This document shows, piece after piece, positions 19,884 to 21,026 of a DNA stretch of 64,000 nt (the stretch's first letter is position 1; each line of letters opens with the position of its first letter). The notes under the pieces were generated by a model. That model was not told where the DNA came from and did no database searches. It was given only the letters and a program-made list of their open reading frames with translations. The position numbers and the translations under genes were made by a program. The DNA is from Candidatus Staskawiczbacteria bacterium RIFCSPHIGHO2_01_FULL_39_25 (lineage in GTDB: Bacteria; Patescibacteriota; Minisyncoccia; Minisyncoccales; Staskawiczbacteraceae), in contig MHOO01000004.1 in assembly GCA_001820095.1 (NCBI GenBank), positions 1,749-65,748 on the forward strand, written 5' to 3'.

Positions 19884-21026
19884 ATGAGACAAAGTATTCT
19901 TATAAATAATGATAAAGAAAAAGCCTTAATTGCTGATTTAGAGGCAAGAAAAGATATAAATTCAGAAAGAATTAAACGGCTTTTGGCATTGCAGGATTTA
20001 ACTAAAAAAGAGTATTCTCCTATTAAAATTTTAGTGGATCAGATTATTTCTTTGCCGCGGTTTGCCGATTTTGATTTAGTTGATTTCCCCAGAATTGTTA
20101 CCGTTGAAGAGGGCTTTGACCTATTGAACGCCCCAAAAGACCACCCCAGCCGCAGGGAAACGGACACCTATTATGTTACGGAACATGATGTTTTAAGGAC
20201 GCAGATGACCGTGATGTGGTCTTTCTATTTAAAAGACCAAGATATTTTGGCCAAGTTAAAAAAAGAAGGCTGGGTGGGGGCGTTATCAACCGGTATCGTG
20301 TTTAGAAAAGATGAAATTGACCGCAGCCATTTTCCTGCCTTCCACCAAATTGACGGCTTGTACGTGTGTGAAAAATCAAAAAAGCAGATTGTGCAAAAAG
20401 ATTTAGAAGACGCACTCGTTGATGTGGCAAAAAGCGTTTTCGGAAAAGATATTGAATATAATTTTTCTGTGGAAACATTCCCGTTTACTGATCCTTCCGT
20501 TGAGCTGAATTTAAAGTTCGGCGGCAAGTGGATGGAGGTGCTAGGTTCGGGATTGGTGCATAAAAAAGTGCTGGAAAATTTAGGATTGGATCCGGAAAAA
20601 TATAATGGCTGGGCTTTTGGCATGGGGATAGAAAGGCTGGCGATGGTGAAAATGGAAATACCGGATATTCGGATTTTTTGGTCAGAAGACCCAAGAATTA
20701 CCAGCCAGTTTAAAGATATTAATAGCAAGTATAAAGAAGTAAGCAAGTATCCTGCGGTCTTGCGCGACATTTCCTTTGTCATTGATAAAAATATCAATTT
20801 GAATAATTATTACGAGTTGGTGCGCGACCAAGCAGGCAACCTCATTGAACAGGTTGAATTGGTTGATCAATATGAAAATGAAGAAAAGTGGCCTGGCAAA
20901 AAGTCTTATACTTTCAGGGTTATTTACCGGTCATTAGAAAAAACATTGACGAACGAAGAAGTTAATAATATCCACGATACGATTGTTGAAAAGACGAAAG
21001 GGGAATTTGGGGCGGTGATACGATAA
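19884..21026 (+). CDS. pheS: phenylalanine--tRNA ligase, single-chain type (PheS catalytic core fused to a C-terminal FDX-ACB anticodon-binding domain)
   Basis: Class II motifs ([11 protein letters not shown]; [19 protein letters not shown]; [13 protein letters not shown]). The C-terminal 95 aa, [13 protein letters not shown]...[20 protein letters not shown], resemble the C-terminus of mitochondrial PheRS. Confidence 0.85.

Follow-up and report, generated by a model that had tools for sequence, protein, structure and literature searches.

A 64-kb stretch of DNA, hereafter the window, from a metagenome-assembled genome (MAG) of Candidatus Staskawiczbacteria, an uncultivated member of the candidate phyla radiation (CPR; Patescibacteria), carries a gene for phenylalanyl-tRNA synthetase (PheRS) in which the catalytic and the anticodon-binding modules are joined in a single chain of 380 residues. 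The (alpha-beta)2 form of PheRS has been described as conserved in all known prokaryotes, and the mitochondrial enzyme (mtPheRS), a chimera that combines the catalytic module of alpha with the B8 domain of the beta subunit, that is fully active as a monomer and does no editing, as the only class-II catalytic module that works as a monomer (Klipcan et al. 2010, PMC3275996). This kind of enzyme is therefore known, and the window protein is a new bacterial representative of it, in a clade of its own. We propose that the gene probably encodes a functional PheRS of the single-chain, mitochondrial type, most likely the housekeeping enzyme that displaced the (alpha-beta)2 form.

An initial annotation had read the open reading frame (ORF) at 19884..21026 on the forward strand as a 380-residue protein with a PheS catalytic core followed by a C-terminal module. 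The frame and its length were recovered as described, and the peptides quoted from it ([43 protein letters not shown]) are present in the translation. Pfam places the PheS class-II core (PF01409, tRNA-synt_2d) at residues 38-276 (E=6.1e-55) and the FDX-ACB domain (PF03147) at residues 287-380 (E=2.7e-28), both well outside what chance would give. The latter match covers the profile from end to end (positions 1-94 of 94), bearing out the resemblance to FDX-ACB that had been noted for the C-terminal module. In BLASTP, residues 7-277 align to residues 71-327 of E. coli PheS, reaching its last residue, and residues 282-380 match positions 696-794 of E. coli PheT, its final 99 residues. The protein thus consists of a PheS core to which the B8 domain of PheT is attached. 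The coiled-coil arm of PheS had been described as reduced, in agreement with the Pfam search, which did not detect PF02912 in the protein, and with the structural model, which shows two short helices at residues 10-21 and 25-35.

Against curated family models, the protein reaches 172.5 bits with TIGR00468 (canonical PheS), far from its cutoff of 237.45, and 255.8 bits with TIGR00469 (mitochondrial PheRS), missing the cutoff of 258.35 by 2.5 bits. This marginal miss reflects a model trained on eukaryotes, and a 50%-cluster representative of the same family (P0121) passes at 264.3 bits. Architecture, structure, functional residues and phylogeny all place the protein in the single-chain type; the curated TIGR00469 score falls just short. 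A third model, NF051887 ('PheS-related mystery ligase SrmL', 349 positions), aligns over both domains (residues 38-369) with 255.2 bits. We rejected an SrmL identity, as the cutoff of 300 is missed here and by all 20 relatives tested (194-274 bits); we found no literature on SrmL.

The AlphaFold model of the chain, computed with a 30-sequence family alignment as input, is highly confident, with a mean predicted local distance difference test score of 94.4 and a predicted template-modelling (TM) score of 0.90. Its best whole-chain matches in the PDB, as found by Foldseek, are closed human mtPheRS and its mutants (query-normalized TM score, TMq, 0.79-0.80; root-mean-square deviation 2.8-3.2 Å; ~387 columns), with 3CMQ itself at TMq 0.80 and 2.8 Å over 387 columns. 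In the tRNA-bound open human form 3TUP, rotation of the anticodon-binding domain lowers the TM score to 0.59; in bacterial PheS alpha subunits only the core superposes (TMq ~0.55). Sequence comparison likewise ranks human mtPheRS first among solved structures (E~1e-59), with bacterial PheS behind it (E~1e-39). A fold search of BFVD returned nothing beyond generic folds of class-II aminoacyl-tRNA synthetases.

The residues expected of an active enzyme are in place. These include H87 and R90 of the HPSRR motif, R141, H154 and Q155 of motif 2 and the motif 3 arginine R251, together with the FPFT phenylalanine pocket (F199, P200, F201 and T202) and the specificity alanine of GWAFGMG, A244. Across the 30-sequence alignment F199, F201, T202, A244, R141 and R251 are invariant or near-invariant. 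F199 and F201 are the counterparts of T. thermophilus Phe258 and Phe260, the aromatic pair at the phenyl ring (Klipcan et al. 2010, PMC3275996), and the adjacent T202 corresponds to human Thr235, at the position of T. thermophilus Val261. Human mtPheRS reads the anticodon base G34 with Asp364, Phe366, Ser375 and Arg414, and the mutation Asp364Gly kills its activity (PMC7540514). In a HMMER alignment the first three of these residues correspond to D328, Y330 and S341. That alignment ends at residue 370, and R380 is equated with Arg414 by position, both lying at or next to the C-terminus; E. coli PheT has an arginine at the matching position. D328, S341 and R380 are near-invariant across the family. 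Because the phenylalanine pocket, the class-II motifs and the G34-reading residues are conserved, we conclude that the protein has all that is known to be necessary for Phe-tRNA-Phe synthesis by the mitochondrial mechanism, the activity itself being assigned by homology.

By analogy with the human enzyme, the PheS-type class-IIc module would activate phenylalanine with ATP and transfer it to A76 of tRNA-Phe, and the B8/FDX-ACB domain, joined to it by a flexible hinge, would read G34. The segment between the two domains aligns with human residues ~311-323, a dynamic hinge (PMC7540514), and may likewise act as a mobile interface between the catalytic and anticodon-binding domains. The resting state would be closed, as modelled on human mtPheRS, with the anticodon-binding domain swinging out on tRNA binding; enzymatic activity, monomeric state and domain swing are all predicted by this analogy. 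As there is no B3/B4 editing domain, Tyr-tRNA-Phe would not be proofreadable in cis.

Paralogues of aminoacyl-tRNA synthetases with non-canonical roles are common, and the protein misses the equivalog cutoffs of pheS, pheS_mito and SrmL alike, as might a catalytically dead or repurposed PheRS paralogue serving as a regulatory tRNA-binding protein or an amino-acid:carrier ligase. The near-invariance of class-II motifs, phenylalanine pocket and G34 readers across the family, and a whole-chain fold that is that of the active enzyme, make such a paralogue very improbable.

To place the protein among its relatives, we restricted neighbour-joining trees (Kimura distances, 100 bootstraps) to the 217 columns of the catalytic core, which kept the shared extra domain from driving the grouping. 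All single-chain proteins form a clade with 100% support, on a long branch from four canonical PheS, in a tree of 48 sequences, and a clade with 99% support in a tree of 71 sequences with six canonical PheS. This clade has two parts. Clade A (98%) contains 13 Patescibacteria sequences (88%, including one from a 517-kb chromosome), proteins from Bdellovibrionota and Oligoflexia MAGs, and three others. Clade B (98%) contains five eukaryotic mitochondrial FARS2, 14 huge-phage, five giant-virus and 23 other sequences, with an unresolved order inside. These are simple distance trees with few outgroups, in which the position of the root is provisional. The label 'mitochondrial-type' given in the initial annotation thus holds in so far as the protein groups with FARS2 in the single-chain clade (99%), away from canonical bacterial PheS; it has to be qualified in that the protein is sister to the mitochondrial clade and just misses TIGR00469.

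The anticodon-binding domain taken alone gives the same picture. It is closer to the single-chain enzymes (phage, 45% identity and 81 bits; Oligoflexia, 37.5% and 79 bits; mitochondrial, 28-37% and 62-73 bits) than to the B8 domains of PheT (29-32%, 42-47 bits). Because the core tree and the anticodon-binding domain agree, these sequence comparisons suggest that the fusion of core and B8 most likely arose once, and that the Patescibacteria enzyme is most likely neither an independent invention nor nested within the eukaryotes.

Set beside mitochondrial PheRS (human FARS2, yeast MSF1; TIGR00469; 3CMQ/3TUP), the window enzyme has in common the single chain of PheS module and B8/FDX-ACB, the whole-chain fold (TM 0.80), the phenylalanine-pocket and G34-recognition residues and the absence of an editing domain. 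It differs in its sister-clade position (with a TIGR00469 score of 255.8 against 258.35), in being encoded on a bacterial chromosome and having no transit peptide, in lacking an insertion of ~33 residues, which interrupts the human alignment at query residues 166/168, and in its length of 380 residues, against 415 in the solved human chain and ~420-476 in other eukaryotes. Relative to the canonical subunits, its core is 35-38% identical to E. coli and alphaproteobacterial PheS (TIGR00468) and has the same class IIc motifs, and its C-terminal domain is homologous to B8 of PheT (29-32% identity); however, the PF02912 arm is missing, B8 is fused in cis, no pheT lies nearby, the TIGR00468 score is below cutoff (172.5 < 237.45) and the fold match is to the core alone. 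The PheRS of huge phages and giant viruses has the same two-domain architecture, but is 31-45% identical, falls with the mitochondrial enzymes in the other subclade, and is an auxiliary gene on mobile or viral genomes, unlike the window enzyme. Giant-virus PheRS has been reported to group with organellar PheRS (Kijima et al. 2024, PMC11304981).

The single-chain form is widespread. The identical sequence has been deposited as 'MAG: hypothetical protein A3A98_03310 [Candidatus Staskawiczbacteria bacterium RIFCSPLOWO2_01_F...]', and its gene occurs on 15 public contigs, the largest of 272 kb, where separate assemblies agree on the flanking genes. A homology search returned 5410 homologues at E<=1e-10, of which the best 120 are 342-399 residues long, ~68-79% identical and contain both domains; those that are named come from Staskawicz-, Nealson- and other Parcubacteria/Patescibacteria. 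NCBI labels close orthologues 'hypothetical protein'. Of 31 loci confirmed when GTDB species representatives were scanned, 29 are two-domain orthologues (50-79% identity), 28 of them from Patescibacteria-type MAGs and one from a Bdellovibrionota MAG (52%). The sequences bearing orthologues include contigs of 702 kb (JBBTWE010000001.1) and 649 kb (JAUXUT010000149.1), together with OY969803.1, a record of 516,640 bp titled 'chromosome: 1'. An exhaustive search of 1.84 billion cluster representatives found 323 that reach E<=1e-30, and the Parcubacteria family roughly equals one 50%-identity cluster, whose representative is 52% identical to the query. The nearest relatives outside the Patescibacteria (L030:1414-2526, P0122 and L137:9463-10833) are in Bdellovibrionota and Oligoflexia MAGs (48-52% identity, or 46-52% depending on the alignment) and on a cellular contig beside an F-type ATP synthase operon; there the single-chain form is probably an extra copy beside the canonical enzyme. 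A Rosetta-stone search for fusions yielded ten longer relatives whose additional domains (AlaRS core, methyltransferase, TACO1) are unrelated and which lack a tRNA_bind domain; they are probably eukaryotic gene-model fusions.

Two-domain genes are also present on 45 IMG/VR contigs (about twenty of 200-536 kb), in giant-virus bins, in a 1.47-Mb virus, on two jumbo-phage-like metagenomic contigs and on the 635-kb huge phage LR745206.1 (613869-614897); these viral and phage loci are L036, L138, L139-L183 and LR745206.1. The phage and viral proteins tested are 338-372 residues long, pass TIGR00469 and are 31-45% identical to the window protein. Such homologues could suggest that the gene is foreign DNA in the bin, of eukaryotic or mitochondrial, phage or giant-virus origin, and mis-assembled or mis-binned. 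Yet it lies inside a 272-kb contig among bacterial housekeeping genes, its guanine-plus-cytosine (GC) content is that of its surroundings, the viral homologues are only 31-43% identical and in another clade, and the same arrangement is seen in several independent samples. Since the synteny recurs, this explanation is effectively refuted, and we assign it next to no probability.

We consider it likely that the single-chain enzyme is the sole housekeeping PheRS of the genome, and that in Staskawiczbacteria and a large subgroup of Parcubacteria it would have displaced the (alpha-beta)2 enzyme. Neither a pheT nor another pheS turned up in the window in a tblastn search with E. coli PheS and PheT, and neither gene lies within +-10 kb of ~30 Patescibacteria orthologues; as a control, two alphaproteobacterial loci from the same scan show adjacent pheS and pheT. 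This absence from the neighbourhood is weak evidence, because pheST need not be nearby. Two further considerations argue for a sole enzyme: next to a PheT, an anticodon-binding domain in the same chain would be redundant, and an identity of ~70-79% across lineages fits an essential single-copy gene. The housekeeping context of the gene, with gyrB, secE, nusG and rplK downstream, recurs across samples.

Published family counts point the same way. Canonical PheS (PF02912+PF01409, K01889) was found in 1645 CPR genomes and PheT (B3_4+B5+FDX-ACB, K01890, median 666 aa) in 1642, as compared with 2011 for ThrRS, 2017 for SerRS and 2053 for HisRS, while the counts outside the CPR are alike for all five (946-1046; Meheust et al. 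2019, Suppl. Data 1, PMC6744442). Some ~380 CPR genomes therefore lack PheS and PheT together, a gap left unflagged in that table, which tags both families 'equally_distributed'. As 'tRNA-synt_2d' appears only once in the file, the single-chain proteins had not been absorbed into the PheS family there. The deficit may belong to the lineage that carries the single-chain gene.

Searches for a Patescibacteria PheT in other collections were negative: a scan of IMG/VR gave 10 loci, none with Patescibacteria features, and the best 80 matches of a metagenome scan with a PheT alignment were all E. coli-like PheT. Plain-PheS-like representatives were also followed as a lead to a Patescibacteria PheT and discarded, P0264 being from a non-CPR bacterium and the P0285 contigs having no pheT neighbour.

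A remnant of pheT was found next to orthologues in a sister subgroup of Parcubacteria. A tblastn search with E. coli PheT detected, at locus L021, a B2-like domain that ends 5 nt before the single-chain gene, and a query with this sequence identifies a large family of short Patescibacteria proteins whose only domain is PF01588. All of the best 120 matches to this query are 86-169 residues long; with a profile query, 119 of the best 120 are 126-191 residues long and one has 262. The mini-proteins begin with MKxxYNWLK, resembling the N-terminus of PheT, and their best NCBIfam match is pheT_bact at positions 1-157 of 798 (143-167 bits). They pass the cutoff of 'YtpR family tRNA-binding protein' and miss that of 'TyrS-associated PheT N-terminal domain-related protein TapR'. 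The order tyrS, mini-gene, single-chain pheRS holds in five of six independently sampled clusters (the exception is L044), with a gap of 5-71 nt before pheRS and leuS or valS often next; one Moraniibacteriota locus has tyrS 1.6 kb upstream and no mini-gene. Named mini-proteins are from Moranbacteria, 'Parcubacteria group' and 'Patescibacteria group', and among loci L001-L033 the mini-gene was found in L021 alone.

We read these mini-genes, from their sequences, as truncated PheT (B1-B2 only, ~140 residues) that was kept beside the enzyme that displaced the rest. A mini-gene adjoining orthologues is direct evidence of pheT decay in the sister subgroup. The B1-B2 mini-protein may possibly be a trans tRNA-binding helper of the single-chain PheRS. 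TyrRS is an equally possible partner, since the mini-gene lies between tyrS and pheRS and since TyrRS-B2 fusions exist in the CPR (Mukai et al. 2017). At the contig start of L021, positions 3-20 translate to MCIRDS. This is a Nextera adapter remnant, and the start of the deposited 'partial PheT' ORF is therefore an artefact.

Several points weigh against a sole single-chain enzyme. The absence of canonical genes covers the 64-kb window and the +-10 kb neighbourhoods, and pheS and pheT may lie elsewhere in the genome. The published deficit is a family-level count, untied to the lineages that carry the single-chain gene, and canonical PheS and PheT are present in most CPR genomes (Meheust et al. 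2019, PMC6744442), among which a B2-less PheRS-beta has been described (Mukai et al. 2017). The closest relatives outside the CPR, in Bdellovibrionota and Oligoflexia, are very likely also pheST-bearing; as the canonical enzyme is expected there, the single-chain form can be an extra copy. The TIGR00469 cutoff is just missed, and the SrmL model gives a similar score (255.2), also sub-cutoff. Finally, the window contains neither a mini-gene nor tyrS, and no Staskawiczbacteria are among the named mini-proteins.

These points would fit an accessory PheRS-like ligase working beside a canonical (alpha-beta)2 PheRS encoded elsewhere, as a back-up, as a stress- or inhibitor-resistant enzyme, or in charging a special tRNA or amino acid, the sense in which NCBI speaks of a 'mystery ligase' for a related family. 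The abundance of canonical PheS/PheT in the CPR, the nearest non-CPR relatives (in Bdellovibrionota/Oligoflexia and on the ATP-synthase-operon contig, where the canonical enzyme is expected), the 255 bits of NF051887 and the 'hypothetical protein' label left by NCBI are all in its favour. The high identity across Parcubacteria lineages and the housekeeping neighbourhood are however typical of an essential single-copy gene, and a fused anticodon-binding domain would be redundant if PheT were present. Moreover, the phenylalanine pocket and the G34 readers are canonical, with no altered specificity apparent, the SrmL cutoff is clearly missed by the protein and by the 20 relatives tested, PheS and PheT are equally deficient in ~380 CPR genomes, and truncated PheT remnants adjoin orthologues. 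We consequently regard an accessory ligase as rather unlikely, and favour a single-chain PheRS that serves as the housekeeping enzyme.

We found no report of a single-chain PheRS in Patescibacteria in the literature, of which our coverage is incomplete. The only works found that link PheRS with CPR, Patescibacteria or Parcubacteria are Mukai 2017 and Meheust 2019; nothing further came from the Tian 2020 supplements or from Tsurumaki 2022.

The positions of the gene, its domains and associated features are collected in the table. Upstream of the gene, a hairpin would close a DUF5666-like gene (stop at 19783-19785); this hairpin is absent from our consensus-scan list. It is followed by a promoter-like TTGATT-17-TAAAAT, one of 8 sigma-70-like sites observed against 5.8 expected in shuffles, which is weak evidence. 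Because of the upstream hairpin with its T-run and of this promoter-like sequence, the single-chain PheRS gene probably starts its own transcription unit, a suggestion at the level of consensus matches. Directly downstream is gyrB (ORF from 21035, with GyrB domains), as the initial annotation had noted in place of pheT, and then secE, nusG and rplK. The GyrB ORF (21035-23281) has an N-terminal extension of ~115 residues, rich in Lys, Ala and Glu, which precedes the point where the ATPase domain usually begins ([24 protein letters not shown]). The window as a whole is rich in housekeeping genes, including those for ThrRS, LysRS, SerRS, GatB, DnaE, GyrB, PBP2 and a Mur ligase.

Four Patescibacteria loci have a tRNA-Thr(TGT) gene immediately upstream (~15-570 nt) of the single-chain PheRS; the window has none there. 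A tRNA-Phe gene was not found in 29 Patescibacteria loci or in the window. Elsewhere in the window, positions 3148-5686 hold a restriction-modification module, whose methylase (585 aa) joins UPF0758/RadC (JAB) domains to a C-5 cytosine DNA methylase; next come an R.HinP1I-type endonuclease, a 136-aa ORF and a 718-aa SMC-like protein. At 39202-43359 a protein of 1385 aa combines six TIG/IPT repeats, a beta-propeller (lactonase/NHL-like) and PKD domains, and probably serves as a large surface protein in this bacterium, whose genome is small.

Table. Coordinates of the single-chain PheRS gene, its parts and associated features (window positions unless a locus is given; aa, amino acids).
Feature	Position	Strand	Basis or remark
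Single-chain PheRS coding sequence	19884..21026	+	ATG start, 380 aa plus stop; complete
Terminator-like hairpin CAGGG(G)-TTTG-(T)CCCTG, flanked by A-run and T-run	19805..19835	+	read from sequence only
Sigma-70-like promoter TTGATT-17-TAAAAT	19849..19877	+	consensus match, 9/12; ends 7 nt before ATG
N-terminal segment, aa 1-45, two-helix remnant of PheS coiled-coil arm	19884..20018	+	AlphaFold helices, no PF02912
Class IIc catalytic module, aa 38-276	19995..20711	+	PF01409; family alignment; Klipcan et al. 2010, PMC3275996
Inter-domain linker/putative hinge, aa 277-286	20712..20741	+	between the two Pfam domains; aligns with human ~311-323
FDX-ACB (B8-type) anticodon-binding domain, aa 287-380	20742..21023	+	PF03147; human alignment
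PheT B1-B2 mini-genes	L041:8001-8429, L046:6001-6426, L184:5001-5396, L021:3-332		outside the window; ~130-170 aa, in Moranbacteria-like Parcubacteria
tRNA-Thr(TGT) genes	L017:9355-9428, L019:9898-9971, L024:9879-9952, L026:9913-9987		upstream of single-chain PheRS

A broader reading, which we offer tentatively and hold to be doubtful, would join these observations: the single-chain enzyme would be the sole PheRS of a large Parcubacteria subgroup, the first bacterial lineage with a single-chain, editing-free cytosolic PheRS; the fusion would have occurred once, in bacteria or their phages, before eukaryotes took it up; and FARS2 would be a xenologue. If so, FARS2 would derive from a bacterial or phage single-chain lineage and would not be a eukaryotic invention made after endosymbiosis, in parallel with the mitochondrial RNA polymerase, which is phage-derived. 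As a further part of this reading, the PheT B1-B2 fragment retained in some lineages may be a trans tRNA-binding subunit. The sister position of the Patescibacteria enzyme to the clade of mitochondria, phages and giant viruses makes the unresolved origin of FARS2 testable by phylogenetics.

In public MAGs, thousands of single-chain PheRS genes carry the label 'hypothetical protein' or 'alpha chain'. Marker sets in which PheS and PheT are expected will under-score the completeness of the genomes with these genes. The protein would also provide a naturally minimal PheRS of 380 residues for biochemistry and genetic-code engineering. If the bacterium does rely on it, the rule of a heterotetramer in all prokaryotes would be broken, and translational quality control would have been abandoned as genomes shrank in free-living or episymbiotic bacteria.

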